From contig JBAXET010000001.1 in assembly GCA_037140275.1 (NCBI GenBank), positions 1,160-65,159 of the forward strand: a DNA stretch of 64,000 nucleotides, in the 5' to 3' direction. The DNA is from Ferruginibacter sp. (GTDB lineage Bacteria > Bacteroidota > Bacteroidia > Chitinophagales > Chitinophagaceae). This document shows, in pieces, positions 2,948-39,559 of the stretch. Under the pieces are notes generated by a model. It did no database searches. It had not been told where the DNA came from and saw only the letters and a program-made list of their open reading frames with translations. The stretch's first letter is position 1. Each line of letters starts with the position of its first letter. The position numbers were made by a program, and so were the translations under genes.

Positions 2948-2958
2948 ATAGCGCTTCT

Positions 2959-4395: not shown

Positions 4396-4931
4396 TTTTT
4401 AGATTGTTTTATTTGTTTGGGTTTATACCACATCCAAAATCCGCTTAAAGTAAGGAACAGTAAAGCTAGCCCCATTATACTTGAATATATTTTTTTTGAT
4501 AGCCCCAATTTGTTGGTCAGCCAGCCATCCACTATTGCTCCATCATGAATATCCTGGATCAGACTGCCATTTTTTTGTTCAATATGAATGGTGTTGCCGG
4601 TTTCCCCGTCTACCTGAATATTGAAATAATTCTTAAATGAAAAATTGATATAGCCCTTGGCAGGTTTCAACTGAATATTTTCTGCGTATTTAAAATGATT
4701 GTTTGTTTTTTCATTAATTGATCTAACAGCCATTGATTCCAATGAATCTAATGGCAACCATTTTTGCAATGAAGTACTTGCAGTAATTTTATTATCGAAG
4801 ATTACAGTAGTGAAAACAGCTTTCCAGGCCAGCATCACAGCGGTGATAGAAATAAAAAAGAAAAAAATGAAAAGTACAGATGCAATTTTTCTGTGCCATA
4901 CCCTGGATTGAAGTAATATTGATTTTGACAT
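4392..4931 (-). CDS. PepSY-type small membrane protein
   Basis: The start is moved to the internal Met (MSKSILLQSRVWHRKIASVLFIFFFFISITAVMLAW), because the longer ORF overlaps the upstream gene. Topology is TM, soluble domain, TM, typical of PepSY-associated TM proteins. Its stop overlaps the downstream PAP start in an ATGA overlap at 4392-4395. Confidence 0.55.
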   Translation of the reverse strand: MSKSILLQSRVWHRKIASVLFIFFFFISITAVMLAWKAVFTTVIFDNKITASTSLQKWLPLDSLESMAVRSINEKTNNHFKYAENIQLKPAKGYINFSFKNYFNIQVDGETGNTIHIEQKNGSLIQDIHDGAIVDGWLTNKLGLSKKIYSSIMGLALLFLTLSGFWMWYKPKQIKQSKK

Positions 4932-4998
4932 GCTTGTATTTTTATTAAAAAAGGTACCACTAACCATAGTGATACCTTTACTTTTTGCTCTGCAATTA

Positions 4999-6417: not shown

Positions 6418-6437
6418 ATTTTTAAATTGAATGATGA

Positions 6438-9200: not shown

Positions 9201-9482
9201 TTTGTTTTGGAAAACGAAGTTGCAATTATAAAAAGCAGTAAAAGACAATAGGATGATTATTGACAATTAGATAACTATTACATAACAGAGACTTAAGCTT
9301 AGGATAACAATTTGTTTATATTGCTTTAGTTACTTTACTTATCCTTATAATAATATTTATGTAAAACTAAAATCAGGTACAATGAAAAGCATCCAATTTT
9401 TCTTCATTGAATTATTTATTCGCATTTTCCTTTTTCGTATTTCTTTTTTTAGTTCGCCATTTAAGTTTTTGAAAGTTGGTTA

Positions 9483-10340
9483 ATGAAAGAAATTAAAAAA
9501 AGAAAACTCGACATTCTGGTTATTTCTGATATTCATCTTGGCACATTTGGCTGCCATGCCAAAGAATTGTTGCATTATCTTAAGTCGGTAAAACCCAAAA
9601 CAGTCATTTTAAACGGCGATATCATTGATATCTGGCAGTTCAGTAAACGCTACTGGCCTAAAAGCCATATGAAAGTGGTAAAGTATATTATGGGCTGGAT
9701 GAGTAAGGGTGTAAAAATCCATTATATTACCGGCAACCACGATGAAATGCTGCGCAAGTTTGTGGGCTTTAAAATGGGTTCTCTAAAAATTGTAAATAAA
9801 GTAGTGCTGGATTTAGAAGATGGAAAGAAAGCCTGGTTTTTTCATGGGGATGTATTTGATGTAACCATGCAGCACAGTAAATGGCTGGCAAAACTGGGTG
9901 CTGTGGGTTATGATACATTAATACTGATTAATCGTTTTGTTAATTTTATTTCGGAGAAAGTTTTTAAGAGAGGGAAATTGTCTTTATCTAAAAAGATTAA
10001 AAACACCGTAAAGAGTGCAGTAAAGTTTATCAATAGCTTTGAACAAACTGCTGCAGATATTGGTATCAGTAATCAGTATGATTATGTGGTATGCGGACAT
10101 ATTCATCAACCCGAAATGAGAACAGTGGAAAATGAAAATGGAAAAATTATCTACCTTAACAGTGGAGACTGGATTGAAAATTTAACAGCACTGGAATATG
10201 TGAATAATGAATGGACTATTTACCGCTTTGACGAAACAGCAATGGAACAAATGAAAGCAGTGGCTGCAGAAGACGAAGAACCGGATAACAGTACCCTATT
10301 CGACAATATGGTGGAAGAGTTTAACTTAATGCGCAACTGA
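9483..10340 (+). CDS. LpxH-like metallophosphoesterase; candidate PlcP-type phospholipase C rather than a true UDP-2,3-diacylglucosamine diphosphatase
   Basis: Metallophosphoesterase motifs ISDIHLG, GDIIDIW, GNHD, FHGD and CGHIH. No signal peptide. The stop TGA shares a base with the next ATG (ATGA at 10338-10342). Confidence 0.65.
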   Translation: MKEIKKRKLDILVISDIHLGTFGCHAKELLHYLKSVKPKTVILNGDIIDIWQFSKRYWPKSHMKVVKYIMGWMSKGVKIHYITGNHDEMLRKFVGFKMGSLKIVNKVVLDLEDGKKAWFFHGDVFDVTMQHSKWLAKLGAVGYDTLILINRFVNFISEKVFKRGKLSLSKKIKNTVKSAVKFINSFEQTAADIGISNQYDYVVCGHIHQPEMRTVENENGKIIYLNSGDWIENLTALEYVNNEWTIYRFDETAMEQMKAVAAEDEEPDNSTLFDNMVEEFNLMRN

Positions 10341-11428
10341 TGAAAATATTATATGCTATACAGGGAACAGGTAATGGCCATTTAAGCAGGGCAAGGGATA
10401 TTATTCCTTTGTTGCAGCAAAAAGGCGATCTGGATATTTTAGTCAGCGGTATACAGGCCGATGTGGAATTGCCTTATCCTGTTAAGTACAAATTCAAAGG
10501 GTTGAGTTTTATTTTTGGTAAGAAAGGAGGCATCGACCTGCTGGCCACTTACCGTAAAAGCAATATAAAAAAATTATACAACGAAATTAAAAGCTTGCCT
10601 ATTGAAGAATATGATCTGGTGATCAATGATTTTGAACCGGTAAGTGCATGGGCTTGTAAAATTAAACACAAAACCTGCATTGGCTTAAGTCATCAAGCTG
10701 CAGTGATCAATAAAAAAAGTCCTAAGCCAGAAAAGAAGGATCCTGTAGGAAAAGCCATCTTACATAATTATGCCCCTGTTACCGAAGCTTATGGCTTTCA
10801 TTTTGGGGCTTACGATAAAAATATTTCCACCCCTGTTATCAGAAGTCAGGTACGCAATGCTATTCCAGAAAATAAAGGGCATTATACTGTTTATTTACCT
10901 GCTTATGAAGATAAGCGCATAATAAAAGTGTTAAGTCAGATTAAAAATATACAATGGGAAGTTTTCAGTAAGCATTCTAAAAAGGAGTATACAGAAAAAA
11001 ATATACACATTCGCCCTATTAATAATGATGCGTTTATTGATAGTATGATTACCTGCACCGGAATGTTGTGTGGTGGCGGGTTTGAAACACCTGCCGAAGT
11101 ACTGTATTTAAAAAAGAAGCTGATGGTTATTCCTATGAAAGGGCAATACGAGCAACAGTGTAATGCAGCAGCCCTGCAAACTATGGGTGTACCCGTAATA
11201 AAAAGTTTGAAAGAAAAACATCTGGAGAAAATTAAAACATGGACGAATTCTACACTGATCATCTCTGTTAACTATCCAAACATCACTGAAAAAATAGTGA
11301 ACGATATTATAAAAAAACATATGACCGGAAAAAAACCGGATACAATTTCGTTAGGAGAATCTGCTTATTCACACAAAAAATTAAAAGAGATCAGTCTGGA
11401 GAAAATATTAAAACAGGCGGGCGGCTAA
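10340..11428 (+). CDS. GT-B glycosyltransferase (MGDG-synthase / GT28-like family), candidate glycosyl-diacylglycerol synthase
   Basis: N-terminus MKILYAIQGTGNGHLSRARDIIP is typical of this glycosyltransferase family. C-terminal GGGFETPAEVLYLKKKLMVIP nucleotide-sugar binding region. Translationally coupled to the preceding gene. Confidence 0.6.
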   Translation: MKILYAIQGTGNGHLSRARDIIPLLQQKGDLDILVSGIQADVELPYPVKYKFKGLSFIFGKKGGIDLLATYRKSNIKKLYNEIKSLPIEEYDLVINDFEPVSAWACKIKHKTCIGLSHQAAVINKKSPKPEKKDPVGKAILHNYAPVTEAYGFHFGAYDKNISTPVIRSQVRNAIPENKGHYTVYLPAYEDKRIIKVLSQIKNIQWEVFSKHSKKEYTEKNIHIRPINNDAFIDSMITCTGMLCGGGFETPAEVLYLKKKLMVIPMKGQYEQQCNAAALQTMGVPVIKSLKEKHLEKIKTWTNSTLIISVNYPNITEKIVNDIIKKHMTGKKPDTISLGESAYSHKKLKEISLEKILKQAGG

Positions 11429-11432
11429 TACT

Positions 11433-12788
11433 ATGTTATTTACAAAGGAAGAATTTGGAGCAGATTTTAATTGGGGAGTTTCCACTGCCGCTTACCAGAT
11501 AGAAGGAGCACATATTACTGATGGTAAAGGACTTTCTATATGGGATACTTTCTCCCAGAAAAAGAAAAAAATCATTGATAATCACAATGGGAATATCGCC
11601 TGTGATTATTATAACCGCTATGCAGAAGATATTGCCTTACTGTATAAACTAAATATTCCTAATTACCGGTTCTCTATTTCCTGGAGCCGCATTCTACCTC
11701 AGGGTACCGGCCCTATCAATCACAAGGGAGTTGACTTTTACAACCGCATCATAGATTTCTGTTTAGAATTAGGTATTGAACCATGGATTACTATATACCA
11801 CTGGGACTTACCGGAAGTATTGCAAAAAAAAGGAGGCTGGACAAACCGTGAAGTCATTCACTGGTTTGGATATTATGTAGATTGTTGCATTAAATTATTT
11901 GGCGACAGGGTAAAAAAATGGATGATTTTAAACGAACCCATGGTATTTACAGGTGCCGGGTATTTTTTAGGAGTGCATGCCCCCGGGAAAAAAGGGCTTA
12001 CCAATTTTTTATCTGCAGCTCACCATGCAGCTTTATGCCAGGCCGAAGGTGGCAGGATAATTAAAACATTGCGCAATGATTGTAAAGTGGGCACCACCAT
12101 ATCCTATTCGCATATTGAGCCTTTCAGAAATACTGACAGAGATATAATAGCATCAAAAAAAGTAGATGCATTATTAAACCGCTTGTTTATTGAGCCATTA
12201 CTGGGAATGGGCTATCCCACCAAAGAGCTGAAAATTTTAGAACGGATAGAACGTTTCATGCATCATGGCGATGAGGGAAAGCTGGCTTTTGATATGGATT
12301 TTATTGGCTTACAGAATTACACCAGAGAATTGGTAAGTTATGCCCCTTTAATGCCTTTTGTAAGAGCTAAAATTATTAAAGCCAATAAAAGAAATGTGGC
12401 GCATACCCTGATGAATTGGGAAATTTATCCGCCATCAATATATAATGCATTAAAAAGAATTAATGCATATTCAGGGGTTAAAGAAATTATTATAACAGAA
12501 AATGGTGCCGCATTTAAAGATGAACTTAGTAATGGTGCAGTACATGATTTTGAGCGGCTTGACTATTTAAAAAATCATCTGGAGCAGGTATTGCTGGCTA
12601 AAAAGGAAGGTGTGAAAGTAAATGGCTATTTTGTATGGACCCTGCTGGACAATTTTGAATGGGCAGAAGGGTTTCATCCAAGGTTTGGATTAGTATATGT
12701 GGACTTTGATACACAAAAAAGAGTCATCAAAGCATCCGGTAAGTGGTACAGTGAATTTATAAAAAACGATCAGCCGGTTATTTCGTAA
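11433..12788 (+). CDS. GH1 beta-glucosidase (cytoplasmic)
   Basis: FNWGVSTAAYQIEGA N-terminus. Acid/base motif ILNEP and nucleophile motif ITENG. 451 aa with no signal peptide. Starts 4 nt after the preceding stop. Confidence 0.9.
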   Translation: MLFTKEEFGADFNWGVSTAAYQIEGAHITDGKGLSIWDTFSQKKKKIIDNHNGNIACDYYNRYAEDIALLYKLNIPNYRFSISWSRILPQGTGPINHKGVDFYNRIIDFCLELGIEPWITIYHWDLPEVLQKKGGWTNREVIHWFGYYVDCCIKLFGDRVKKWMILNEPMVFTGAGYFLGVHAPGKKGLTNFLSAAHHAALCQAEGGRIIKTLRNDCKVGTTISYSHIEPFRNTDRDIIASKKVDALLNRLFIEPLLGMGYPTKELKILERIERFMHHGDEGKLAFDMDFIGLQNYTRELVSYAPLMPFVRAKIIKANKRNVAHTLMNWEIYPPSIYNALKRINAYSGVKEIIITENGAAFKDELSNGAVHDFERLDYLKNHLEQVLLAKKEGVKVNGYFVWTLLDNFEWAEGFHPRFGLVYVDFDTQKRVIKASGKWYSEFIKNDQPVIS

Positions 12789-16063: not shown

Positions 16064-16083
16064 CCTGCCTGAGAACAGGCAGG
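16064..16083 (-). terminator. possible terminator hairpin at the end of the phosphonate operon
   Basis: 8-bp GC-rich stem CCTGCCTG / CAGGCAGG with loop AGAA. On the minus strand it is followed by GCACTATTTTACATTTT, which is only moderately U-rich. Confidence 0.4.
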
Positions 16084-16202: not shown

Positions 16203-17330
16203 TTATAAAAAATTTACTATTTCTTCCGCTAAACCAAATGCTAACGTCATACCTGCTCCTCCTAAACCATTGATGATATACACACCGGGTTCGGGGGAAT
16301 AAAATAAATCAGTATCGCCATTGGTTAATTTAGGATAGATACCGTTCCAAGTTTCTGCAATCTGCCAGTCTTTACACTTGGCAATTTGTTTTAAATAATC
16401 AATAATGAGGGTATTGATATGTGCCCTATCGAAGGGATCATGCGTTAATCCGTATTCGTGCGAATCGCCAATGGTAATCTGTCCGGCATCGTTTTGACAG
16501 GCCATTACATGTATACCCCAATCCATATACTCTTTCATTTCCGATTCATACCTTTTTTTTAACACAGGTAAAGATGCAGCAGCGGTAAAACTTTTATAAT
16601 GGGTTAAAGAAAGCCCTCCGCATAAGGGCACTCCCATACTCTGGTTATTTGGTAGTGTATCCGTACGCATCATCTGCAGTTTACATTTGGTAAGCGGTAA
16701 TTTATTATATTCTTCGGGATATAGTGTTTCAAAATCTGCACCACTGCATACAAATATCAGATCGGCTTCATGCTGTTCAGTTGTACCAATATATACTGTT
16801 GTATCAGCTATATAAGAAATGCATTTCCCCCGGAAAAATGCTACTCCAAATTTTTCTGTCAGGTATTCCGGAATGGCAGCAATGGTTTTAACCGGATTGA
16901 TAATCATCTCATCTTTGCTGTATAAGCCACCCAGCAATGTATTAGTCTCTGCAGCAGGAGATATATCAGCAACCTGTTGTTTGTTTAATAATTCAACAGG
17001 CCTGTTTGTATAAAATACTTCGTGCAGTTCCTGCAGTACCTGCCATTCATCGGGGTGATGGGCAACATGAAGGCTGCCTGCAGTATCATACCAAATAGTA
17101 GTGTCATCGCAAATTTGTTTCCAGATGCTTTTACTGCGCAGGGCTCTTTCATACATATTACCTGTTGGCTGACCTATTGGCCAAACCAATCCAAAATTTC
17201 TAATGGATGCCCCCACTGCTTTATGGTTACGGTCGAATACTTTAACAGCATACCCCTTCACTGCTAAAGCTCTTGCAGTAGCCAGGCCAACAATACCTGC
17301 GCCTATAACGATGGCTGAACGTTGCTCCAT
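16203..17330 (-). CDS. FAD-dependent oxidoreductase of the phosphonate-associated DAO family (TIGR03364-like); candidate aminophosphonate oxidase
   Basis: N-terminal Rossmann motif AIVIGAGIVGLATA, 375 aa, DAO-like C-terminal GLGGAGMTLAFGLAE. It overlaps the upstream permease gene by 28 nt and lies in an operon with PhnX-like and PhnZ-like genes. Confidence 0.7.
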   Translation of the reverse strand: MEQRSAIVIGAGIVGLATARALAVKGYAVKVFDRNHKAVGASIRNFGLVWPIGQPTGNMYERALRSKSIWKQICDDTTIWYDTAGSLHVAHHPDEWQVLQELHEVFYTNRPVELLNKQQVADISPAAETNTLLGGLYSKDEMIINPVKTIAAIPEYLTEKFGVAFFRGKCISYIADTTVYIGTTEQHEADLIFVCSGADFETLYPEEYNKLPLTKCKLQMMRTDTLPNNQSMGVPLCGGLSLTHYKSFTAAASLPVLKKRYESEMKEYMDWGIHVMACQNDAGQITIGDSHEYGLTHDPFDRAHINTLIIDYLKQIAKCKDWQIAETWNGIYPKLTNGDTDLFYSPEPGVYIINGLGGAGMTLAFGLAEEIVNFL

Positions 17331-18607
17331 ATAATTGCCGTTCTTTTGTATTTGCTGATAAAATATATTGCGGAAATAACAGTGCCAATAATTCCAAATA
17401 CAGAAAGTGTTAATACACTCTGAGAATAAAAACTCACCCAGTGTAGCTTTACTTTAAATATTTCTTTACCCAGCAACACCATTATACTGCCTAAATAACC
17501 AAATGAGTCTGACAGGTACATCAAAAAACCTACATTTCCCCTGAATTGAAATGCAGCAATCATCCTGTCAAATAATAAACAGTTGAAAGGTATATAGGCA
17601 GTATAAAGACCAAGGCCAACCAGCATCATCCAGTTGCCGGGATGAATCATTTGCAGTGTAAACAACCATGTTGAAATTCCAGTAATAGCAAAACCTGCAA
17701 TAATTAAAATATGAGAAGTAATAAATGCTGTAAAATTATTTTTGATCAGCACCATTGCTGCAATAACAACCAGTACAATTAATGTTATGGGGATTTCCGT
17801 TTTTGTAAAAATTGCAGCCTGATTGGCAAAGCCCAATTCGTTCCAGATGTCTGCAGCAAAATTATCTCTCAGGTCTCTGAAGATGGTAAGAAAAACATAA
17901 ATGATAATAAGTGTAAGCAGTCCGGGAAGAAAACTGGAAAAAAGCAGCTTTCTATTTTCCTTTGTCATTGGCACTCTTTCTTGCTTTAAGGCGATATCTG
18001 ATGCTGATGGAGCAGGAACTTTTTCCAGTAAATACAGCAATAATAGTAGTGGAAATATAAATACAAGGCCGGTTATAAAAGGTGACCAAAATTCAGAAAC
18101 TCCCATATTCAGCATCAGGTATTTAGCGACGAATTTTACAAAACCGGACGAAAAAATAAAACTAACTGCCAGAGCAGCTCCAATAAAATCAGTTGCCCTT
18201 CTGCCTTCTACGTACGAAAAAATAATTCCCCATATCATACCTAATGGAAATCCATTGATTAATAAAAAAACGATATTGTATGGAGCAGGAACAACGGCAA
18301 AAAAGAATAATGCCACCCATGCAATACTGATAAGGAGCAGGATTAATTTCCAGCGGCCAAAACGTTTTAATTCAGCAATAAATTTTATACCGTAAAATTT
18401 ACTCAATGTATAGCCAATGGCCTGGCTTATAACCAGGCATACTTTATAATTGATGCCTAAAAAATTCAATCCTTCAAAAGTGCCTGCTGTAAAAGGCTTT
18501 CGGAATGCATATACCACTGCATAGGTTAAAAATGTAATGAGTGCCGCATATAATGCAACCTGTAATTCACTTTTAGAAAATTTATTATTAAGCGATGTGT
18601 TTTGCAA
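17303..18607 (-). CDS. polytopic (about 12 TM) permease, MFS-like; candidate aminophosphonate importer
   Basis: 434 aa, hydrophobic throughout. It overlaps both neighbours (20 nt and 28 nt). I recall this family being annotated as a DUF next to phosphonatase-like genes in Bacteroidota, but I could not verify that here. Confidence 0.55.
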   Translation of the reverse strand: MQNTSLNNKFSKSELQVALYAALITFLTYAVVYAFRKPFTAGTFEGLNFLGINYKVCLVISQAIGYTLSKFYGIKFIAELKRFGRWKLILLLISIAWVALFFFAVVPAPYNIVFLLINGFPLGMIWGIIFSYVEGRRATDFIGAALAVSFIFSSGFVKFVAKYLMLNMGVSEFWSPFITGLVFIFPLLLLLYLLEKVPAPSASDIALKQERVPMTKENRKLLFSSFLPGLLTLIIIYVFLTIFRDLRDNFAADIWNELGFANQAAIFTKTEIPITLIVLVVIAAMVLIKNNFTAFITSHILIIAGFAITGISTWLFTLQMIHPGNWMMLVGLGLYTAYIPFNCLLFDRMIAAFQFRGNVGFLMYLSDSFGYLGSIMVLLGKEIFKVKLHWVSFYSQSVLTLSVFGIIGTVISAIYFISKYKRTAIIWSNVQPSL

Positions 18608-19307
18608 GTACTGCAGAGTTTAGAATAAGTGGTAATTCAGAAATGTCATCTATAACTGCATCAGGTGTAAAACCAATCAGTTGATTTCGGGTATATGCAC
18701 CGGTACTAATTCCTACAACTAATCCGCAGCCAGCATTTCTTCCTTCCAAAATATCCACTTCGGTATCGCCCACTTTAGCTACAAAAGCAGGATCTGTTAT
18801 GCCTGTAGCTTGCATAATAGTCTGAATCATTTCCGGCGACGGCCTTCCATTTTTAACTTCATCACTGGATATTACAAAGTCAATAAGATTTGTCCTGTTC
18901 CAACCAAAACGTTTTAAAATGGTATCAGTTATTTTTTTTGAAAACCCTGTGTTCAATGCTACTTTAATATTGTGGGATTGCAGTTGAGAAAAAACATATT
19001 CTGCATTATGCATAGGTTGCAGTGCAGTATCATTTTCGTAAAATGATACCATAATATCTATAAATACAGCGTGAATACCCTCAATATGATCAGGATTATT
19101 CTTTAATTCAGCAGGATAGAATTTTTCAAGTAGCAAACCGATGGCTACAGATTTTTTATACCCCATTACTGATGTAATTTCATTAAATGGTATAGTATAT
19201 CCAAACTGATGTAAAGCATATTTAAATGCTTCTGCTATAGTGCCATTTTCTTTTACTGTTGTGCCGGCTATATCAAATACTACTAATTGTATATTACTTC
19301 TCCTCAT
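18588..19307 (-). CDS. phosphonatase-like HAD hydrolase (PhnX-like, TIGR03351-type)
   Basis: The nucleophile motif is VVFDIAGTTV (DxAGT instead of DxDxT). Cap-domain Lys region VMGYKKSVAI. NGRPSPEM has Arg replacing the usual HAD Lys. C-terminal motif VGDTEVDILEGRNAG. Confidence 0.75.
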   Translation of the reverse strand: MRRSNIQLVVFDIAGTTVKENGTIAEAFKYALHQFGYTIPFNEITSVMGYKKSVAIGLLLEKFYPAELKNNPDHIEGIHAVFIDIMVSFYENDTALQPMHNAEYVFSQLQSHNIKVALNTGFSKKITDTILKRFGWNRTNLIDFVISSDEVKNGRPSPEMIQTIMQATGITDPAFVAKVGDTEVDILEGRNAGCGLVVGISTGAYTRNQLIGFTPDAVIDDISELPLILNSAVLAKHIA

Positions 19308-19309
19308 TA

Positions 19310-19906
19310 TTATAATTGAATGGTCGGTGAAAATTGTTTTTCTAAATGCAGTGTAATCAGTTCTTTAAAATATTGAAATGAAATTTCTACAGGTAAATTT
19401 TCTTCTTTGGCTAATTCATCCCAGCGGCGCATGTCAATAAAATTTTCAAAGAGTTCATCCTGTTCAAATAATATGGCTTCATCAGGATTCATCATACCAC
19501 CCTGGTATTCCAGTGTTTTTTTACTGGCATCAGAAAGGCCGTTATAATATTCAGGATACTTAAAAGTGAGATAACGCTTTGCTGATACGTGATTTTCTAC
19601 CAAACGTGCAATACGTTCAGAAAACCCCCTTTTACGTAAAAACTGTGCGCCAATTTTTTCATGATTGATGATGCCGAAATCGCCCATTGTATTATTTACA
19701 TAGGCCGATACACAAATATGTCCGATATCATGCAGAAATGCAGCCAGTATCATTTCATCATCATACCCTCCCTGCCTGGCTAATTGTGCTGCCTGTACCA
19801 TATGCTCCAGCTGGGTAACTTTTTCTCCGGCATATTCATTACCTCCATGGGAGGCATATAAATCAATAATATCTGCGGCTATTGACTGTGGTATTACAGC
19901 GTGCAT
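19310..19906 (-). CDS. phnZ: PhnZ-like HD-domain di-iron oxygenase (C-P bond cleaving)
   Basis: The match to PhnZ as I recall it is close along the whole length: EYAGEKVTQLEH, AAFLHDIGH, GFSERIARLVENHVSAKRYL and LSDASKKTLEYQGGMM. 198 aa. Confidence 0.75.
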   Translation of the reverse strand: MHAVIPQSIAADIIDLYASHGGNEYAGEKVTQLEHMVQAAQLARQGGYDDEMILAAFLHDIGHICVSAYVNNTMGDFGIINHEKIGAQFLRKRGFSERIARLVENHVSAKRYLTFKYPEYYNGLSDASKKTLEYQGGMMNPDEAILFEQDELFENFIDMRRWDELAKEENLPVEISFQYFKELITLHLEKQFSPTIQL

Positions 19907-19923
19907 AAAAATATTTTTACAGT

Positions 19924-21003
19924 TTATTTATTAAATTTAATGGCCTTGGCTACAGGATGCTCGGTGTTAAATGAAACACCTAAAAGGGTAGCAATACTAT
20001 TAGCGATTTGTTTCTGATACAATTGTTGAGGTATTTTAATTTCTCCCGCTGGCTCAATGCCAGGGCCAATTACTCCAAGCCATGCCTCACCTGATCCCTT
20101 TACTAAAAAACTATGTTTATTCCATTGATTGTTTTTGTACCCTCTGCCATGATCTGTAGTAATTAATAAAGTAGTGTTGTTTTTATAATTGGGATTCGTT
20201 TGTATAAAATACCAGAGGTCTGCAATCATTTTATCCACCTGTGCAGCCTGCTGTAAATAGTTATCATATTGGCTGCTATGTGCCGATTCATCAGTTTCTC
20301 CAAGACTCATAAAAACAATTTTAGGCTGATGCTGTTTGATATATTCTTTTGCAGATAAAAAAGTGAGAATATCGTAACGGGTTTGTTTTTTTTCAATGAC
20401 TACTTTATCCTGTACATCATTGATCATTTTCATAGTGCTGTTTTCGGCAGTATCAGGTAAAGTTTCATATCCGCTGTATACCGGAAGCCCATTTCTTTGT
20501 TGCCCAAGAATATAAGGAAAAACCGACCATGAGCTGAAAGCGACAACTTTGCCTTTATAATTCTCCTTTTCATTCAGGTACTCCAAAATATTGGTATTCT
20601 TATTTACCAGTTCCTTGTTGGAATAAATCAGGGGGTCGCTATATCCGGTAAGTATTTCATTATATCCGGGATATGAAAATTTATACAAATTACTTACGTC
20701 TACATTATTGCCATACATTCTGTTACCCATTAACTGGCCCTGCTTTGCCAGTACATTCCAAAAAAAAGGCATCAGTTTTTTTCTTCGCTCATTTACATCT
20801 GTATCCCAATACTGCAATTTGGTAAGTAAGGTGTCGGCAGCGTATTTAGGATCACTTATTAAAGCGGAATCTGCACCTGAAAATATTTCCTGCCATCTGA
20901 ATCCGTCTGTAGTGATAATGAAAATATTTTCGGACTGCTGCTTTTGCTGCGCAACGGATGTCAACGATAGTGACAAGAAAATAAAACTGATAAATTTTAT
21001 CAT
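19924..21003 (-). CDS. exported alkaline-phosphatase-superfamily enzyme (NPP / phosphodiesterase-like)
   Basis: Signal peptide MIKFISFIFLSLSLTSVAQQ. Motifs ITTDGFRWQEIF, SLGETDESAHS and LITTDHGRG resemble the metal and nucleophile motifs of type I phosphodiesterase / nucleotide pyrophosphatase-like AP-superfamily members. Confidence 0.6.
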   Translation of the reverse strand: MIKFISFIFLSLSLTSVAQQKQQSENIFIITTDGFRWQEIFSGADSALISDPKYAADTLLTKLQYWDTDVNERRKKLMPFFWNVLAKQGQLMGNRMYGNNVDVSNLYKFSYPGYNEILTGYSDPLIYSNKELVNKNTNILEYLNEKENYKGKVVAFSSWSVFPYILGQQRNGLPVYSGYETLPDTAENSTMKMINDVQDKVVIEKKQTRYDILTFLSAKEYIKQHQPKIVFMSLGETDESAHSSQYDNYLQQAAQVDKMIADLWYFIQTNPNYKNNTTLLITTDHGRGYKNNQWNKHSFLVKGSGEAWLGVIGPGIEPAGEIKIPQQLYQKQIANSIATLLGVSFNTEHPVAKAIKFNK

Positions 21004-21089
21004 GGGTTACTATGATTACGCAAAGCACCACTTTTAATGTAAACTCCTCTTTAAGCAATCATTATGTAAACGTTACGTTTCAATTGAAA

Positions 21090-21117
21090 TAAAAAACGGA
21101 CTCCTGTGGGAGTCCGT
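21090..21117 (-). terminator. rho-independent terminator after the 677-aa TonB receptor gene
   Basis: Perfect 9-bp stem ACGGACTCC (21096-21104) / GGAGTCCGT (21109-21117) with loop TGTG. The A-run at 21091-21096 on the plus strand gives a U-run after the hairpin on the minus strand. Confidence 0.8.
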
Positions 21118-21226
21118 CTTAACTAACGCAAAAAAACTGCACTTGTAAACTAAACCAAACGCTGCTGTTTTTGAGTTGCAAAACCTGGAAAGGTTTCGCT
21201 TTTGACTGCTTGCTATATGAGAAATA

Positions 21227-23260
21227 TTAAATTTTTACTGTTACTGCAATCCATCCGCTTCGTCCAACTCCATTAATACCACTTCCATGTGTACGGTAAT
21301 CTTTATTGAATATATTCTGTAACCCAATATTAAAATTGAACACAGATAATTTAAACCCTGTGTACAAATTAACTATTTGCCAGCCCGCTGTGCCATTGAT
21401 GCCGATTCGATTATCATCCTTATCCCCCTGCGCCAACCTGTTTTGCTTAGCTGCGAACATACACTCGGCAGCAGTAAACCAGTTTTTATTTTTGTAAGTG
21501 GCTGCAACTCTTCCGTTAAAAGGCGGTATACGGCGTAACGGCTCTTTCTTGCTCAGGCTTTGTCCATATGTATAAGTAATTCCACTGCTAAAGTACACAT
21601 GCTTTGTTACCTCAGCGTTAAATTCAGTTTCAAATCCTTTAATAAATGCAGCTTCTGTGTTTTCTTTTTTATAAACAGGGTAGCCATTGATCACCTGTCC
21701 TTCTGCTTTTACCCTTGTGATAATATCAGACAAGTGCATATAATAAGCAGCAAATGTTGCGTTTATTTTTTTTGAAGAAAACTTATAGCCAATTTCTGTG
21801 TGTTGCGATTTTTCGGGATGTAAATCAGCAGTGGGTATTTCGTAACGAAAATCCACAATGCCCAATGTTCCCATATCATCAATATTAGGTGCCCTGTATC
21901 CGCTGCTGAATGAAATGTATGCAGATTGCTGCTTGTTAATACAATACAAAACAGCTGCATTACTTACTAAAGCTGAAGGGCTAATTTTTATATTGCCCAG
22001 GCTGGTATCAGTAATAGCAATATCAAATATATTGTAACGTAACCCTCCATCCACCAGCCATTTTCCCAGGTGGATATGATGCAGACTGTATACAGCATAA
22101 TTGCCATATTTTGCACCGTTTGGATACAGACCTCTCTTTATGTCTGCAATATAGGTGAGTGTATTGATATCTTTTCTTGTACTGGACACTCTGTCGCGGT
22201 AAATTTCAATACCTGAATTAGCTGTCCATATTTTATTTAACACCGATACAATATCTGCCGTAATGCCCACTGTTGCAGTAGCATCCTTTTCTTTTCTTAA
22301 ACTGGTACTACCATTTTTTAAACTGCTTCGGCCTTCTTTTCCCTGTTGAAAGGAAACGGTAAATTCAGTTTCTTTTAAAAGTGGAGTGCTGCCTTTTACA
22401 TTTACTCTGGCATAAGTTAATAAACGCTGTTGAGGGTCCATTTCATTAAGTCTGAAATTTTCTAACCGAACTTTATGATAAACCGGTACATGTTCCTGTT
22501 GTAAAAACTGATTGGCCATAATTAATTCAATATTCTGCCTCAGTAAAATTTTTGCTTTAATATCAAAAGCCCATTCATTATACCCCGAAGGCGACTGTTT
22601 TCCGGTAGTATCACCACCAATAATATCACCGAAATTTCTTTTACTGATACCGGCTAATATGGCTAATTTTTGTCCACTGTAAGCCGCTTCCCCTCTTATT
22701 GTTTTCTCCATATCACCGGTCATGTATTTACTCATCAATTTTCCGGTAAACAAAGACTTTTGGTTGGTAAATTCCGGATTATTAGAAATTATATTTATAA
22801 CTCCCCCTATAGCATCAGAGCCATACTGTACAGAGCCTGTTCCTTTTGCTACTTCTATTTTATTGATTGTATAAGCATCTATCGTATTCAGGTATTGATT
22901 AGGCCCGTAACGAAAGATGGAATTGTTTAATCGAATACCATCTGTTAATATCAAAAGCTGATTTCCGGTTACGCCTCTTACAAATGGTGATCCGCCTCCG
23001 TGATTGGTTTTTTGTACAAATACACCATTCATTGCCATCATGGCTTCGGGAGTAGTACGAAACTGATAGTCATCCATTGTTTTTCTGCCCAATACATTTA
23101 CAGTAAAGGGCAATAACAATGATTCAGATTTTTTGCGGGTTGCAGTTACAACCAGTTCTTTTAATTTATTAGCAGAGTCAGCAACAACTGTTTGCTGCTG
23201 AGCAGCAATATTTGAAGAAATCATTAATGCAGCAACAATGACGAATAGTATATGTTTCAT
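21227..23260 (-). CDS. TonB-dependent receptor (small, 22-strand type)
   Basis: Signal peptide, TonB-box-like ELVVTATR, and plug motifs NGVFVQKTNHGGGSPFVRGVTGNQLLILTDGIRLNN and GSDAIGGVINIIS. Starts 19 nt downstream of the 922-aa phosphoesterase gene. Confidence 0.8.
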   Translation of the reverse strand: MKHILFVIVAALMISSNIAAQQQTVVADSANKLKELVVTATRKKSESLLLPFTVNVLGRKTMDDYQFRTTPEAMMAMNGVFVQKTNHGGGSPFVRGVTGNQLLILTDGIRLNNSIFRYGPNQYLNTIDAYTINKIEVAKGTGSVQYGSDAIGGVINIISNNPEFTNQKSLFTGKLMSKYMTGDMEKTIRGEAAYSGQKLAILAGISKRNFGDIIGGDTTGKQSPSGYNEWAFDIKAKILLRQNIELIMANQFLQQEHVPVYHKVRLENFRLNEMDPQQRLLTYARVNVKGSTPLLKETEFTVSFQQGKEGRSSLKNGSTSLRKEKDATATVGITADIVSVLNKIWTANSGIEIYRDRVSSTRKDINTLTYIADIKRGLYPNGAKYGNYAVYSLHHIHLGKWLVDGGLRYNIFDIAITDTSLGNIKISPSALVSNAAVLYCINKQQSAYISFSSGYRAPNIDDMGTLGIVDFRYEIPTADLHPEKSQHTEIGYKFSSKKINATFAAYYMHLSDIITRVKAEGQVINGYPVYKKENTEAAFIKGFETEFNAEVTKHVYFSSGITYTYGQSLSKKEPLRRIPPFNGRVAATYKNKNWFTAAECMFAAKQNRLAQGDKDDNRIGINGTAGWQIVNLYTGFKLSVFNFNIGLQNIFNKDYRTHGSGINGVGRSGWIAVTVKI

Positions 23261-23279: not shown

Positions 23280-26048
23280 TTATTTTTTAAACCCTTTTTT
23301 CATATCATCCACATCATCCATTTCGGGGCCCTGTAAAATTTTACGCCAGTCAATGCTGCGATGGTATTTCTGCATGGCTTTCTCTACATCAAAAACCCGC
23401 GGATCATGTTGTTCTAAAGTATAGGGTGTAAAATCTGGTGTGGCAGTAAAAAAATCCTGCAACAATGAAGCCGTAACATCATATTGATTTACATACGGTA
23501 CATCCAGTATATTATAAATAGTTTTTAAGATAGCCCCAAAGTTAGCATGGGTATGACTAACATAGCCTTTTTTTACATAAGGTCCGGCCATCATTAAAAC
23601 ACTGCGGTGTGCATCAATATGATCAACTCCACCCTGCGGATCATCTTCAGTAATAATCACCAGCATATTTTTCCAGTATGGAGTACGGGAAAGAAAATGT
23701 AAAATTCTTCCTACTGCCAGATCATTATCTGCAACAAAAGAATTGCGTGAAGAATAGCCATCCTCAGGTCTGTTACCAGCCCCATGATCATTGGGCACCT
23801 GCATAGTAATTAATGAAGGCAATTTTTTATTGCCCTTGAGCCACATTTTAGTAAACTCGTCTTCAAACTGGTTCATCCTGAACTGGTCAGGTATATTCAT
23901 GTTAAAACCTGCATAGTTATGACTGGTACGGGTGAACAAGGCTTTTTGCATAGGCACCATTACTGCATGTGCAGCACCTGTTGCAGTATCCATCCACTCT
24001 TCTCTTACATGAGCAGTTTCATTGGCTTCGCCAAAATTGTAAAAATTAATACCCTTTCTTTCCAAAGCTTCCCATAAACCGCCGGTTTCTGCATAATCTT
24101 CGGGATCCATACTTCCTGTAGAGCCCGGAAATCTTCTGCCTGGTGCTTTAGAAAAATACTTGGCTGTTTTATCCACGCTTGAATTGGCTTCCACCCATTC
24201 ATTAGGTATTACGCCCATCATCCAGTGGTGACCATGAATTGAGGCATCACTGTCGCAATAAAAATTATCGCTGAATGAAAATTGTTTGGCTGCTTTATGA
24301 TGATTGGGCGTGACTTTTAATTTTTTATTGCTAGCACGTAAAGAATCGGGTAATGTATATTCACAATCCACACCAAATCTTGCTAAAGTACTGTCGCCAT
24401 TGGCATTTTTTAACTGGCCAAAAATTTCATCATAAGTTCTGTTTTCTTTGGTGATGTACACGATATATTTTATCGGACTTTGTCTTAATCCGGGCAATGC
24501 CGGTAACGGATTGCTGATATCATTTTTAACTGTTACCGCTTCAAATGTATTACTAATAGTTTGTGCTGTATATGCAGCTAATTCAGCTGCAGCGGGAATT
24601 TTAATTTTTTGAAAGCTCCCTAATTGGATATCGCCAATATAAGTACCCTGCGGCGGTGTTATAAATCCTGCACCCCCATTTGGTCCGGCACCCAAACCCC
24701 TGCAACTGATCACATACATTTCTTTTTCATCTGCAGATAGTTTTACTCTTGTGGGGCCCCAGCCTGCAGGTATTAATCCTTTGGTGGTTTTAGTAGCCAC
24801 ATCAATTACAGCAACGGCATTAAAGCCCAGTAATGCCACATACAAAGTTTTTTCATCCTTACTTAATGTAATGCCAAATGGCAATAAGCCTCTGTATTTG
24901 TCAATGCGTTTGTCAACAGTAATAGGAATATGTGCCAGAATTTTGTGATTTTTGTAATCTATCACGGCAATATTATCATTGGTGGCATTGGTAACATAGG
25001 CATAATTTTTTCCTACAGCAATTGAATTAGGACTGGCACCGCCCACCACTTCTGCATCCTCAATCATTTCGCCAATTTGATAGCCGGTCTTAAACTTATC
25101 AATAACTTTATTGCTGTGTAAATTAATCGTAAACACACTCATCGCTTCCGGTGAATTAGGATTGCCTACACCCGGAATTTGTTTTCCTTCAATTATTGTT
25201 CCTTCAATAGATGCTTTAGTATTATCTCCATAAGGATGATGTGGGATCATCATGGAATTATAATTAGCCGAGTCCATTCCTTTCACCAACGGATAGGCAT
25301 AAGTGCCTACATTAGCAACAAATGCTGTTTGCTTATCTGCGCTTATGGCCAGGCCAAATGGCTGACGGCCTGCAGGAATAGATGCAGTAATTTTTTTTGA
25401 CATCAGATCGTATCTCACCAGGCGAAAATTACCCCTGTCTAAAATCAGCAACTCATTATCATTTAGCAATAAGTCTGAGGTAAAACTGTCTTCAAAATCT
25501 TCGCCATCCACTTTTACATTTAATGATATAGAATCTACCCGCTGCATATTTTCTATATCGTAAACAATTACAGCACCGTTATCACCACCGCTTAAATACA
25601 CTGTTTTAGAATTGGCTGCAAAAGCAACACCCAAAAACGAACCGTCTTTTAAAGGTGATGGTATAATTGTAGTTTGAAACGAGTCACTGGCAAATACATT
25701 TCCTGATACAGGTTCATGTGCCAACGGGGAATTGATTTTTTGATTATAGCTGGGTACTCTTATCTTCTGTAATGAGGCAATATCAATAATAGTAAATACC
25801 CCATTATGCAGGGTAACTGCTTTTTTTCCATTGGGTGATACCGCCATTCCAAATGGATCATTGGTAATGCGTATTAAACTGCCGGCGGGGGTAAGCCATC
25901 TGCCACTGGGCAATACAGAAATACCTTTTTCATTGATTGTTGCAAATTGATTTTTGCCGGGAACCTGTAAAGTGGTCACTGATTTTAATTGTGCAACAGC
26001 TGCAGTACCTGTAATAATTGCGGCTAACAGAAGTATTTGTTTTTTCAT
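23280..26048 (-). CDS. exported fusion protein: N-terminal YVTN-type beta-propeller plus C-terminal phosphoesterase (phospholipase C / AcpA family, PF04185-like)
   Basis: Signal peptide MKKQILLLAAIITGTAAVAQ. Repeated YVTN-like blades (KTVYLSGGDNGAVIVYD, NYAYVTNATNDNIAVIDY, KTLYVALLGFNAVAVIDV, KEMYVISCRG). C-terminal motifs IKYIVYITKENRTYDEIFG, VPNDHGAG and ITEDDPQGGVDHIDAHRS. Confidence 0.75.
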   Translation of the reverse strand: MKKQILLLAAIITGTAAVAQLKSVTTLQVPGKNQFATINEKGISVLPSGRWLTPAGSLIRITNDPFGMAVSPNGKKAVTLHNGVFTIIDIASLQKIRVPSYNQKINSPLAHEPVSGNVFASDSFQTTIIPSPLKDGSFLGVAFAANSKTVYLSGGDNGAVIVYDIENMQRVDSISLNVKVDGEDFEDSFTSDLLLNDNELLILDRGNFRLVRYDLMSKKITASIPAGRQPFGLAISADKQTAFVANVGTYAYPLVKGMDSANYNSMMIPHHPYGDNTKASIEGTIIEGKQIPGVGNPNSPEAMSVFTINLHSNKVIDKFKTGYQIGEMIEDAEVVGGASPNSIAVGKNYAYVTNATNDNIAVIDYKNHKILAHIPITVDKRIDKYRGLLPFGITLSKDEKTLYVALLGFNAVAVIDVATKTTKGLIPAGWGPTRVKLSADEKEMYVISCRGLGAGPNGGAGFITPPQGTYIGDIQLGSFQKIKIPAAAELAAYTAQTISNTFEAVTVKNDISNPLPALPGLRQSPIKYIVYITKENRTYDEIFGQLKNANGDSTLARFGVDCEYTLPDSLRASNKKLKVTPNHHKAAKQFSFSDNFYCDSDASIHGHHWMMGVIPNEWVEANSSVDKTAKYFSKAPGRRFPGSTGSMDPEDYAETGGLWEALERKGINFYNFGEANETAHVREEWMDTATGAAHAVMVPMQKALFTRTSHNYAGFNMNIPDQFRMNQFEDEFTKMWLKGNKKLPSLITMQVPNDHGAGNRPEDGYSSRNSFVADNDLAVGRILHFLSRTPYWKNMLVIITEDDPQGGVDHIDAHRSVLMMAGPYVKKGYVSHTHANFGAILKTIYNILDVPYVNQYDVTASLLQDFFTATPDFTPYTLEQHDPRVFDVEKAMQKYHRSIDWRKILQGPEMDDVDDMKKGFKK

Positions 26049-26172: not shown

Positions 26173-27753
26173 TTATTGAACTACCCACATCTTAGCATTG
26201 ATATTATCATTACCACTATACTGGCTTTGTACTGCAGCTGTATTATTTACTTTATTGGTAGATAATTCAGATGAAGGGTATTGCCAGCGCAAAGGAATAT
26301 TACCACTGTTACCAATACCAGGACCGGTTAAAAATGCAGGAACTCCTGTTCTGCGCCATTGGTAATACGCTTCAAAGCCTGAGTTGCGGCCAAAGCCCAG
26401 GTATTTTTGTAACAATATCTGATTTAAACCAGCTGTATTGTTACCTGCATATTTTACAGCAGTTTGGTTGAAGTAGTTGGCATAACTGAAATTTACAGTA
26501 TAACTAACATAATCACCGGGGGCAGTACCTCTTAAAAAGCTAACGGTATTGTTTCCATCAGTAATGCCATAAAAAGCAAACATTGCTTTAATGCCTTTTT
26601 GATACCAGCTGTCTGCATCACCTGTAGCCCAGCCACGATTGATACCTTCGGCTATATTGAAGCACATTTCGGGATAGCCAATGATAAAGGTATTTTCTCC
26701 GGTTAAGCCATCATAATATCTTTTACGGCCAATTGGAGAATATAAACCTGCTACCACTTTGCCACCTAATGTACTCATGTCTTCGCCATTACCACCACCT
26801 ACAAATGATTTGTAAGATGTATCCGGAAAGCCTAATGCTCTTGCAGGATCAGCCACTTTCATTGCACGCAGGTCATTTAAGGCAGACAGGTTATTTAACC
26901 AGGTTGCAGCTACGCATAAACGTAAAGCATCATTGCCATAGTTCTGACTGTTGTTAGGGTATTGATTGTATGCAGCATTATATACGTACTCCAGATTATC
27001 AGAGGAGCTTTCCATCAGCGGATACTTATTTGCATTAGTGATGGTTTCACTGAACTTTTGTTTGATACTTAAATCAGCATCTGTTTCCTTTTTACTCAAG
27101 TGAATCAGCAAACGTAATTTATAGGTATTCACAACTTTTTGCCATTGCTTTAACGCATCCAATGGTGTTTTTGCTCCGCTGCTTCTTTCCTGAAAATAAA
27201 AGTCTCCCAATAATGAAGTGGTAGAAGAGCTGATCAACCCTGCTAACTGTGTGTTAGCGTCTTCTAACAATTGTAAACTTTGTTTAAAAACTTCTTTCTG
27301 AGTATCATACTTAGGAGTGGTATTGTCTAAGCCTTTCATGGCTTCACTCATTGGCAGATCGCCCACTTTTAAAGTCATATTAATAAAGAAATACGCTTTA
27401 AAAAATTTAGCCAGTGCACTATATGGATTATTAGTAGTACCTGATGCTTTAGCAGCTTCTGTTTCCATTGCAACCACATCTCTTAAGTTACCATAATTTA
27501 ATCCTGCAGCACCTGTCCAGTATTCGTTAGTGCCATAGTAAGTGTAAGAGGATAAAGTGAACTGACAGAATTTATCAGCATCGCCTCCCGGAAAAACAGG
27601 CATGGCGTTTTCAACACTTCTTAATAATAAATAGGCAGGTACACTTTGCGGTAAGTTTGGATTGGTAGCATACTCATCAAATTTTTTGCTGCATCCTGTA
27701 CCAATAACAACTAGTGCCATTGCTGCAAGAATGATATATTTTACTTTTTTCAT
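26173..27753 (-). CDS. SusD/RagB-family outer-membrane lipoprotein (SusD-like_2 type)
   Basis: Lipobox IGTGCSKK. 526 aa, directly downstream (24 nt) of a SusC-like gene. TPR-like helical composition, with C-terminal NIPLRWQYPSSE. Confidence 0.75.
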   Translation of the reverse strand: MKKVKYIILAAMALVVIGTGCSKKFDEYATNPNLPQSVPAYLLLRSVENAMPVFPGGDADKFCQFTLSSYTYYGTNEYWTGAAGLNYGNLRDVVAMETEAAKASGTTNNPYSALAKFFKAYFFINMTLKVGDLPMSEAMKGLDNTTPKYDTQKEVFKQSLQLLEDANTQLAGLISSSTTSLLGDFYFQERSSGAKTPLDALKQWQKVVNTYKLRLLIHLSKKETDADLSIKQKFSETITNANKYPLMESSSDNLEYVYNAAYNQYPNNSQNYGNDALRLCVAATWLNNLSALNDLRAMKVADPARALGFPDTSYKSFVGGGNGEDMSTLGGKVVAGLYSPIGRKRYYDGLTGENTFIIGYPEMCFNIAEGINRGWATGDADSWYQKGIKAMFAFYGITDGNNTVSFLRGTAPGDYVSYTVNFSYANYFNQTAVKYAGNNTAGLNQILLQKYLGFGRNSGFEAYYQWRRTGVPAFLTGPGIGNSGNIPLRWQYPSSELSTNKVNNTAAVQSQYSGNDNINAKMWVVQ

Positions 27754-31059: not shown

Positions 31060-31300
31060 GTAGCTTCGGTTTTTGGTGAATGTGCTTTTAGTTTTTGAGC
31101 TACGAAATTCAAATTGCCATGTGACCGAATAGTGAAGGAAAGATTAACAAAGGTTTACTTAAAGGTTAACAGAAAATTAAGTTAATGTAAACAAATTGTT
31201 TTTTGCTGTTTTTTAAAATCAGGAGTAATTTTTATATCCCTTATCCAATGCTGCAGTTCTCAATTTTGCTGCCGGATATAAGTATAGATATTGTAACAAT

Positions 31301-39541: not shown

Positions 39542-39559
39542 AAATTACATTTCTCATTT

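Follow-up and report, generated by a model that had tools for sequence, protein, structure and literature searches.

A Ferruginibacter operon joining PbfD/PhnX-like and stand-alone PhnZ-type phosphonate cleavage, a probable phosphorus-scavenging unit of Bacteroidota

Operon layout and boundaries

A 64-kb stretch of DNA from Ferruginibacter sp. (contig JBAXET010000001.1 of assembly GCA_037140275.1, analysed over its full length of 64,000 nucleotides and called the window below) carries five tightly packed genes with homology to phosphonate catabolism between positions 16203 and 21003. All five open reading frames (ORFs) are on the minus strand, with overlaps of 28 and 20 nt and gaps of 2 and 17 nt. 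These figures had been given in a previous reading of the letters without database searches (the sequence-only reading) and match the ORF coordinates exactly; the gene identities proposed there were borne out by Pfam and NCBIfam profile searches. From first to last, the genes encode an exported bimetallo enzyme of the alkaline phosphatase (AP) superfamily (19924–21003, 359 aa), a PhnZ-type HD-domain diiron oxygenase (19310–19906, 198 aa), a phosphonoacetaldehyde hydrolase-like (PhnX-like) HAD enzyme (18588–19307, 239 aa), an inner-membrane permease of the DUF5690 family with a predicted major facilitator superfamily (MFS) fold (17303–18607, 434 aa), and a PbfD-type (TIGR03364) FAD-dependent amine oxidase (16203–17330, 375 aa).

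The five genes look like a single transcription unit, because terminator-like hairpins are found on both sides. The first, at 21093–21120 on the minus strand, separates the operon from the TonB receptor gene upstream; its 12-bp stem includes 6 GC pairs and is followed by a T tail; the second, at 16064–16083 on the same strand, lies 3' of the PbfD gene and has an 8-bp stem with 6 GC pairs. The interval 21004–21092 (minus strand) is a putative promoter/operator region, with two GTTTACAT boxes at 21064–21071 and 21037–21044, 27 nt apart. A block reading AACGTTTACATAAT..CTTAA..CAGTTTACATT..GGTGCTTTG, of which GGTGCTTTG is the end, is conserved 5' of the AP gene in three Ferruginibacter loci of our collection (L001, L002 and L020), and we infer a putative promoter or operator function for this GTTTACAT-bearing block. 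Another copy of GTTTACAT, at 31185–31192, occurs 5' of the SusC gene. Across the 64-kb window the box is not enriched (6 observed, 4.0 expected). A sigma-70 promoter scan, using a model unsuited to Bacteroidota promoters, returned 69 sites where shuffled sequences predict 65.5, and Rfam at gathering thresholds recognised no RNA family in the window.

The PhnZ-type oxygenase

The HD protein scores best with TIGR03276 (phosphonate degradation HD-domain oxygenase), at 198.0 bits against a cutoff of 214.6, followed by the TmpB and PhnZ1 families with 143 and 124 bits (cutoff 300 for each). Its matches in the PDB are PhnZ (4MLM/4N6W, E = 3.6e-46) and TmpB (6NPA, E = 9.6e-29), and its identity is 46% to the crystallised PhnZ and 30–35% to the TmpB-like and carbon-phosphorus (C-P) lyase-linked homologs compared. 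Since both the HD protein and the PhnX-like protein described below score under the trusted cutoffs of NCBIfam, we regard them as divergent members of their families.

The sequence-only reading had proposed an intact PhnZ active site, and this proposal stands. The four peptide stretches quoted in its support are all present in the 198-residue protein, and the six diiron ligands are retained: in the alignment, H35, H59, D60, H82, H106 and D163 correspond to PhnZ H34, H58, D59, H80, H104 and D161, the H...HD...H...H...D motif defined elsewhere (PMC8177086). Retained as well, upstream of the first His, is the YxxE loop, whose Y25 and E28 (in NEYAGEK) align with PhnZ Y24 and E27; this loop gates the substrate in PhnZ, where its Glu hydrogen-bonds the substrate amino group (PMC8177086). 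Further matches are H63, K110, S128, T131, Q135 and R160 (PhnZ H62, K108, S126, T129, Q133 and R158). All PhnZ positions compared are kept in the other 20 Bacteroidota homologs collected. Like PhnZ, the HD protein presumably cleaves (R)-1-hydroxy-2-aminoethylphosphonate (HAEP) to glycine and inorganic phosphate (Pi) in an O2-dependent reaction.

We considered that the enzyme might instead act on another alpha-hydroxyphosphonate, be it hydroxymethylphosphonate, N-methyl-HAEP, 1-hydroxyethylphosphonate or 1,2-dihydroxyethylphosphonate, thereby broadening the substrate range in a manner so far undescribed. Its score under the TIGR03276 cutoff would fit such a role. PhnZ homologs have diverged in substrate, TmpB and G. 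maris PhnZ1 being examples, and PhnZ-like genes occur in C-P lyase operons and next to phospholipase C, settings in which HAEP is no obvious substrate. Residues that separate the subfamilies were sought at 14 positions. These are invariant across PhnZ, TmpB and the other subfamilies, apart from Thr or Ser at PhnZ position 129 and one His62-to-Gln replacement (Novosphingobium), so that the substrate assignment rests on overall similarity and gene context. These, however, argue for HAEP: the PhnZ model outscores those of TmpB and PhnZ1, the HAEP enzyme 4MLM is the nearest relative, the Glu that bonds the amino group is in place (PMC8177086), and the partner genes all act on 2-aminoethylphosphonates. 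A different hydroxyphosphonate appears an unlikely substrate.

The Novosphingobium protein with the replacement is encoded on a plasmid (L030, 3869–4507) and carries Gln where PhnZ has His62, its remaining sites being conserved. Its gene is flanked by those for a phosphocholine-specific phospholipase C and a TonB-dependent receptor, with no hydroxylase nearby.

Search for a PhnY*-type dioxygenase

The PhnY*/PhnZ and TmpA/TmpB pathways are defined by an Fe/2-oxoglutarate dioxygenase encoded adjacent to the HD gene, and neither the window nor any of 23 related Bacteroidota loci yielded one. Pfam scans of every window ORF of at least 120 aa detected no TauD, PhyH or 2OG-Fe(II) family, and six-frame tblastn searches of the window and the 23 loci with PhyH and TauD probes gave a best E of 0.5. 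As probes, we used a PhnY*-type PhyH gene that overlaps the HD gene on a Rhodococcus plasmid and, from a Labrenzia plasmid, a TauD gene of the TmpA type; among 14 plasmid loci, a dioxygenase was readily detected with them beside the HD gene in six. In each of the 23 Bacteroidota loci, the sequence up to 10 kb from the HD gene is free of PhyH- and TauD-type dioxygenases. These scans and searches confirm, for the 64-kb window, the local lack of PhnY* or TmpA noted in the sequence-only reading.

PhnZ-like genes without an adjacent hydroxylase are common, given that loci from Bacteroidota, Comamonas, Nostoc, Variovorax and Novosphingobium all show them. In a survey of 19,425 complete genomes by Zangelmi et al. 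2021 (PMC8154272), phnZ homologs were present in 15 of 1,186 phnWX clusters and in 24 of 75 phnWAY clusters (39 in total), compared with 7 phnY*Z clusters. In the former they never stood alongside pbfA, from which the authors inferred that R-HAEP is processed separately (PMC8154272). Furthermore, Table S1 of Zangelmi et al. 2023 (PMC10590968) lists phnZ in 11 of 13 pbfD-phnX clusters that lack phnW, read there as an R-HAEP route, and one of these 11 belongs to Mariniblastus fucicola, the origin of the characterised PbfD2. The arrangement had been put forward as unusual; with 39 clusters against 7, and the pbfD-phnX-phnZ trio in 11 organisms, that view has to be given up.

As to the source of HAEP, the sequence-only reading offered two options, namely that it is acquired preformed or that an unrecognised enzyme of the operon makes it. 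The first is favoured by the present data and is also the interpretation of the literature (PMC8154272; PMC10590968, Table S1); (R)-HAEP is present in the phosphonoglycan of Acanthamoeba, and HAEP of unspecified stereochemistry in the lipids of Bdellovibrio (PMC8154272). The second finds next to no support here; all five folds can be assigned. It would have the FAD enzyme or the AP protein act unconventionally on 2-aminoethylphosphonate (AEP), and its sole support is that no known hydroxylase is encoded locally. All five products, on the other hand, belong to a clear fold or family with other chemistry. The TIGR03364 enzymes oxidise the C2–N bond to yield phosphonoacetaldehyde (PAA), from which PhnX then frees phosphate (PMC10590968), and the AP protein combines a signal peptide with a hydrolase-type bimetallo site. 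In addition, the pair of AP and PhnZ genes persists in the Ferruginibacter locus L002, where PbfD is missing. We therefore hold an operon-borne hydroxylase to be very improbable indeed.

A PhnY*-type enzyme encoded elsewhere in the genome could also hydroxylate AEP and supply the product to the PhnZ of the operon. PhnY* is the one characterised enzyme that makes (R)-HAEP from AEP, classical PhyH–HD and TauD–HD pairs are known in other phyla, and the search was confined to the window and the related loci, so that the remaining genome could hold such a gene. Yet in every classical case examined, the dioxygenase gene overlaps the HD gene or is next to it, which agrees poorly with its absence from the window and from the 10-kb surroundings in the 23 loci. 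AEP is, moreover, already served twice in the window, by PbfD with the PhnX-like hydrolase and by PhnW with a second PhnX-like protein (see below), and published surveys report phnZ without phnY* far more often. This canonical two-step route is given a small chance.

PbfD oxidase and PhnX-like hydrolase

The FAD enzyme is well above threshold for TIGR03364 (409.7 bits, cutoff 285.1) and also matches Pfam DAO (E = 1.8e-44). TIGR03364 is the family named PbfD by Zangelmi et al. 2023 (PMC10590968), and two of its members, which share about 30% identity, both oxidise N-methyl-AEP (M1AEP) and AEP to PAA with O2 as acceptor (PMC10590968). The hydrolase that would act on this aldehyde scores 184.7 bits with TIGR03351 ('phosphonatase-like hydrolase', cutoff 218.9) and 107 bits with TIGR01422. 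Its top PDB matches are the phosphonoacetaldehyde hydrolases 2IOF and 1RQL (E ~1e-15), and by comparison with 2IOF its D12 (in DxAGT) corresponds to the PhnX nucleophile D12 and the cap-domain Lys of MGYKK to the Schiff-base K53. The PhnZ and PbfD/PhnX-like assignments together support the earlier proposal of two parallel C-P cleavage chemistries in one operon.

The DUF5690 permease

By sequence, the permease belongs to Pfam DUF5690 (E = 2e-165) and to no other family, MFS_1 included, and a PDB search with it gave nothing significant. Several DUF5690 homologs carry the label 'MFS family permease' from JGI. An AlphaFold2 model built with 38 homologs (pLDDT 84.9) was matched by Foldseek to MFS transporters at TM-scores of 0.59–0.66, including the glucose-6-phosphate/Pi antiporter G6PT/SLC37A4, the phosphate transporter PiPT and the galactonate transporter DgoT. 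The model thus predicts a 12-helix MFS fold. When a DUF5690 alignment of 16 sequences was compared by hhalign with the MFS_1 protein of the window, no signal was obtained (probability 0.2).

The nearest known counterpart is AepP, a GlpT-like MFS permease for 2-AEP (Murphy et al. 2021, PMC8316502). Both are single-component inner-membrane permeases encoded beside AEP catabolic genes, and both would share the MFS fold, which for DUF5690 is a prediction. They differ in that DUF5690 is a separate Pfam family without a match to MFS_1. We rejected the idea that DUF5690 is AepP itself: AepP is a GlpT-like MFS_1 protein, and an MFS gene that occupies the equivalent position in a Hymenobacter locus has no BLAST similarity to DUF5690.

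The exported AP-superfamily protein

The first gene of the operon encodes a protein whose N-terminus, MIKFISFIFLSLSLTSVAQ, resembles a signal peptide. Pfam matches are weak (Phosphodiest, Metalloenzyme and Sulfatase), and a PDB sequence search found nothing significant. D33, S110, D238, H242, D284, H285 and H297 do not vary among 44 homologs. An AlphaFold2 model (pLDDT 91.2) matches AP-superfamily enzymes in Foldseek with probability 1.0 and a TM-score of about 0.5; among them are sulfatases, phosphoethanolamine transferases, LtaS, YejM and the phosphonate monoester hydrolase 2w8s, none of them a close relative. The last of these ranks 19th among many equally distant matches. The sequence and the model identify the protein as a divergent bimetallo hydrolase of the AP superfamily to which no specificity is assigned.

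Two roles were weighed for it. The sequence-only reading had suggested a periplasmic phosphonate-ester hydrolase; the protein might also be a general Pho-regulon phosphomonoesterase or phosphodiesterase that is merely co-transcribed as the first gene. Homologs with 58–60% identity adjoin pstSCAB-phoU in one locus (L039), a His_Phos_2 phosphatase and a TonB receptor in another (L040) and no phosphorus genes in a third (L038), and with contexts so mixed the family shows no fixed link to phosphonate genes. Its homologs number more than 6,800 in total, and about half of the related phosphonate loci have no AP gene. These facts fit the general role. On the other hand, the AP gene is located directly 5' of the PhnZ gene in nine loci (L001, L002, L006, L011, L020, L022, L023, L041 and L042), and L002 retains the pair though the genes for PhnX-like, DUF5690 and PbfD are gone; an unrelated AP-family gene that follows tmpB in Labrenzia hints at a recurrent functional link. 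We put the general Pho-regulon role at slightly under an even chance, and action on phosphonate esters is a possible role that is no better supported.

The L002 locus, from a Ferruginibacter metagenome-assembled genome (MAG), holds the AP and PhnZ genes at 8886–10597, directly followed by the PAP2 gene.

Related loci

Recurrence across Bacteroidota species shows that the gene arrangement is not due to chance. A scan of one genome per species recovered 21 loci, all from Bacteroidota, namely Ferruginibacter, Puia, Parasediminibacterium, Chryseolinea, Cyclobacteriaceae and Mucilaginibacter. PbfD and HD genes share the locus in 16 of these, usually together with DUF5690, the PhnX-like gene and an adjoining SusC/SusD pair. 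The top match, on the chromosome of a Ferruginibacter MAG, is collinear with the window from SusC through the PAP2 gene, with 71–90% identity between the proteins. For the closely related Ferruginibacter MAG OZ251999.1, proteins of the locus are 78–90% identical. Four additional metagenomic or genomic loci hold the set of HD, PhnX-like, DUF5690 and PbfD genes, and loci outside the 21 repeat the string SusC, SusD, (propeller-phosphoesterase), AP, HD, HAD, DUF5690 and DAO. On a Hymenobacter plasmid, equivalent enzymes are accompanied by an ordinary MFS transporter where DUF5690 would be. The architecture is thus conserved in Chitinophagaceae, Cytophagales, Sphingobacteriaceae and Hymenobacter, which is new here.

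Outside Bacteroidota, a Comamonas plasmid carries PbfD-PhnX divergent from PhnZ, and PhnZ-like genes lie inside or beside C-P lyase gene clusters in Nostoc and Variovorax.

Several genes accompany the phosphonate genes elsewhere and are not in the window. An XRE-type (XRE-cupin) helix-turn-helix regulator of about 190 aa stands beside them in 10 related loci (L004, L005, L007, L010, L013, L014, L015, L017, L018 and L024). A PhoR/PhoB-like pair adjoins the cluster in L022, and a PhoB-like match was also found in L006. In L004, L007, L010 and L021, from Cytophagales and other Bacteroidota, a PHP-family (histidinol-phosphatase-like) gene of about 282 aa comes immediately 5' of the DUF5690 gene, and in several Cytophagales-type loci an exported protein of about 193 aa and no named family is encoded next to the PhnX-like gene. 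In the L004 MAG, the DUF5690 gene (7176–8479) is broken into three ORFs and is either a pseudogene or affected by an assembly error.

The surrounding phosphorus island

Upstream of the operon, Pfam identifies on the minus strand a TonB-dependent receptor (21227–23260), a protein with an N-terminal YncE-like beta-propeller and a C-terminal PF04185 phosphoesterase domain (23280–26048), a SusD-like protein (26173–27753) and a SusC-like protein (27778–31059). In most related loci, a counterpart of the SusC/SusD pair lies ahead of the phosphonate genes.

A second aminophosphonate module lies 18 kb from the operon on the other strand. It comprises a second PhnX-like gene (38855–39541, plus strand; TIGR03351, 218.3 bits) directly followed by a gene for the PhnW transaminase (2-AEP:pyruvate; 39560–40654, plus strand), which exceeds the cutoffs of both NF010006 (458.5 bits) and TIGR02326 (457 bits). 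The two PhnX-like paralogs of the window are 35% identical. The sequence-only reading overlooked this module at 38855–40654, and its count of two routes should be amended: on homology, AEP-type compounds would enter by three routes, PhnW serving AEP, PbfD serving N-methyl-AEP and AEP, and PhnZ serving hydroxy-AEP. These correspond to the three natural 2-aminoethylphosphonate head groups described in the literature (PMC10590968, PMC8154272).

Beside the PhnX-like/PhnW pair is a paralog of the propeller-phosphoesterase (40699–43140, minus strand) that shares 28% identity with the 23280–26048 protein. Both are large exported proteins of the PF04185 phospholipase C/acid phosphatase family and are candidates for releasing head groups. 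In L001, L017, L018, L022 and L023, orthologs are encoded ahead of the phosphonate genes.

At 9483–12788 on the plus strand, genes for a PlcP/LpxH-like metallophosphoesterase, a family-1-type glycosyltransferase and a GH1 glycosidase follow in a row; the same trio is found just past the phosphonate operon in the Ferruginibacter loci L001, L002 and L020. It suggests that the island includes phosphorus-sparing genes for membrane-lipid remodelling. The left end (403–9266) encodes two TonB-dependent receptors and a metallophosphoesterase resembling purple acid phosphatase (2959–4395), and the tail of a glycerophosphodiester phosphodiesterase gene (3–134) is cut by the start of the window. Three minus-strand ORFs have no or partial family matches: 4999–6417 (472 aa, with a lipoprotein-like N-terminus), 36449–37363 (304 aa) and 37384–38688 (434 aa, with a C-terminal DUF218), the latter two being situated between a second SusC gene and the PhnX-like/PhnW pair.

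The segment 43347–64000 (minus strand) is a polysaccharide utilisation locus in its own right, whose probable target is a sulfated uronic-acid polymer. Besides a SusC/SusD pair and an MFS transporter, it encodes five sulfatases and a formylglycine-generating enzyme, three lyases (two for alginate, one chondroitinase-B-like), KduI and an SDR protein. The MFS_1 gene at 43347–44618 was considered as a phosphonate gene and set aside, as its neighbours are KduI, SDR and alginate lyase genes and membership in the polysaccharide locus is more probable.

Discussion

We propose that the operon is a Bacteroidota phosphorus-scavenging unit of the published pbfD-phnX-phnZ type, in which a PbfD/PhnX-like route is joined by a stand-alone PhnZ for environmental HAEP; from homology and gene context, this is the probable function. 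The host would be a soil or freshwater Bacteroidota bacterium that extracts phosphate from aminoethylphosphonate-type compounds. In the proposed scheme, phosphonate-containing material would pass the outer membrane and exported esterases would free the aminophosphonates, the AP-superfamily enzyme and the neighbouring propeller-phosphoesterase being the candidates. The MFS-fold DUF5690 permease would then bring the aminophosphonates into the cell. Inside, PbfD would oxidatively deaminate AEP and N-methyl-AEP to PAA, which the PhnX-like hydrolase would split into acetaldehyde and Pi, while PhnZ would oxidatively cleave preformed (R)-HAEP to glycine and Pi. PhnZ would hence be an accessory enzyme on its own, taking the place that PbfA has in many Proteobacteria rather than completing a PhnY*/PhnZ pathway. 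Regulation of the operon by phosphate may be expected.

Several points weigh against this proposal. First, the roles of all five products are deduced from homology. Second, the HD and PhnX-like proteins score below their cutoffs (198 against 214.6 bits and 184.7 against 218.9 bits), and the positions compared in the HD protein do not tell PhnZ from TmpB-like enzymes, all being shared save T129/S129. Third, the absence of PhnY* covers the 64-kb window and 23 related loci rather than the whole genome. Fourth, the AP family extends beyond phosphonate loci, as seen in L038–L040. Fifth, the proposal does not account for the two PhnX-like paralogs of the window, and the copy in the operon might take another aldehyde.

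Comparison with published systems places the operon among known types. Zangelmi et al. (2021, 2023) and Lidbury et al. (2021) have described, respectively, such clusters and loci of the kind in which it resides, and it thus represents, in Chitinophagaceae, a known cluster type in a known kind of locus. With the pbfD-phnX-phnZ clusters (iScience 2023, PMC10590968; Mariniblastus fucicola, Caulobacter segnis and Pseudomonas brassicacearum), it shares the trio and the absence of phnW and phnY* from the cluster: the oxidase belongs to TIGR03364, the hydrolase has the PhnX-type Asp and Lys, phnZ is contiguous and phnW is 18 kb away. The authors' interpretation is likewise that PbfD and PhnX serve AEP and N-methyl-AEP and PhnZ preformed R-HAEP. 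Their representative table contains no trio from Bacteroidota, the members of this phylum being Pedobacter (phnYA) and Dyadobacter (phnX and pbfA). The operon also differs in its hydrolase, a 'PhnX-like' TIGR03351 protein, in the DUF5690 transporter, in the exported AP gene at its head and in its SusC/SusD neighbours.

The similarity to the PhnY*/PhnZ pathway (McSorley et al. 2012; marine fosmid HF130_AEPn_1; 4MLM) concerns the second enzyme, to which the HD protein is 46% identical with shared Fe ligands and YxxE loop, whereas the first enzyme, PhnY*, was not found in the window or the related loci examined. The logic of a core AEP route plus one accessory R-HAEP enzyme is shared with the phnWX-pbfA and phnWAY-pbfA clusters (PMC8154272). 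There the accessory is PbfA, a pyridoxal phosphate-dependent lyase that yields PAA, and here it would be the O2-dependent PhnZ that yields glycine and Pi; PhnZ and PbfA are mutually exclusive in published surveys (PMC8154272).

As a whole, the island is similar to the 'Pus' loci of Bacteroidota, where outer-membrane importers of the SusC/SusD type stand beside phosphoesterases. SusCD-like Pus loci with phosphonate-degrading genes have been described by Lidbury et al. 2021 (PMC8115612), and a preprint by Connolly et al. 2026 likewise reports Pus loci with aminophosphonate genes. Like those of Flavobacterium and other plant-associated Bacteroidota (PMC8115612), the locus has its SusC/SusD-like pair next to phosphoesterase and phosphonate genes instead of carbohydrate-active enzymes. 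The characterised PusCD1 and PusCD2 import inositol-phosphate-type ligands, and no phosphonate-linked pair has been characterised.

A more far-reaching interpretation sees in the operon and the SusC/SusD pair a system devoted to phosphonate-esterified macromolecules, for example the amoebal lipophosphonoglycan with AEP and (R)-HAEP or the head groups of sphingophosphonolipids. The AP protein would then be a new periplasmic phosphonate-ester hydrolase, DUF5690 a new family of aminophosphonate importers, and the PusCD-like pair the first outer-membrane importer specific for phosphonate conjugates. We regard this as doubtful, at perhaps one chance among several.

For the biochemistry of the C-P bond, the findings add little, since the enzyme trio and the scavenging of preformed hydroxy-AEP by PhnZ have already been published. 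What is new here is the conserved architecture, the MFS fold of the DUF5690 model, an AP family that is not specific to phosphonate loci, and the pair of PhnW and second PhnX-like genes. The main remaining appeal lies in the DUF5690 permease, the AP-superfamily enzyme and the possible link to scavenging of phosphonoglycans or phosphonolipids. DUF5690, an uncharacterised family, gains a testable function in aminophosphonate import, and a large unstudied branch of the AP superfamily is flagged as a candidate head-group-releasing esterase. For ecology and annotation, the value is that the PbfD/PhnX/PhnZ set is fixed in several Bacteroidota families within SusCD-linked phosphorus-scavenging islands, and the data lend support to the idea that soil and freshwater contain enough hydroxy-AEP for a dedicated enzyme to be retained.

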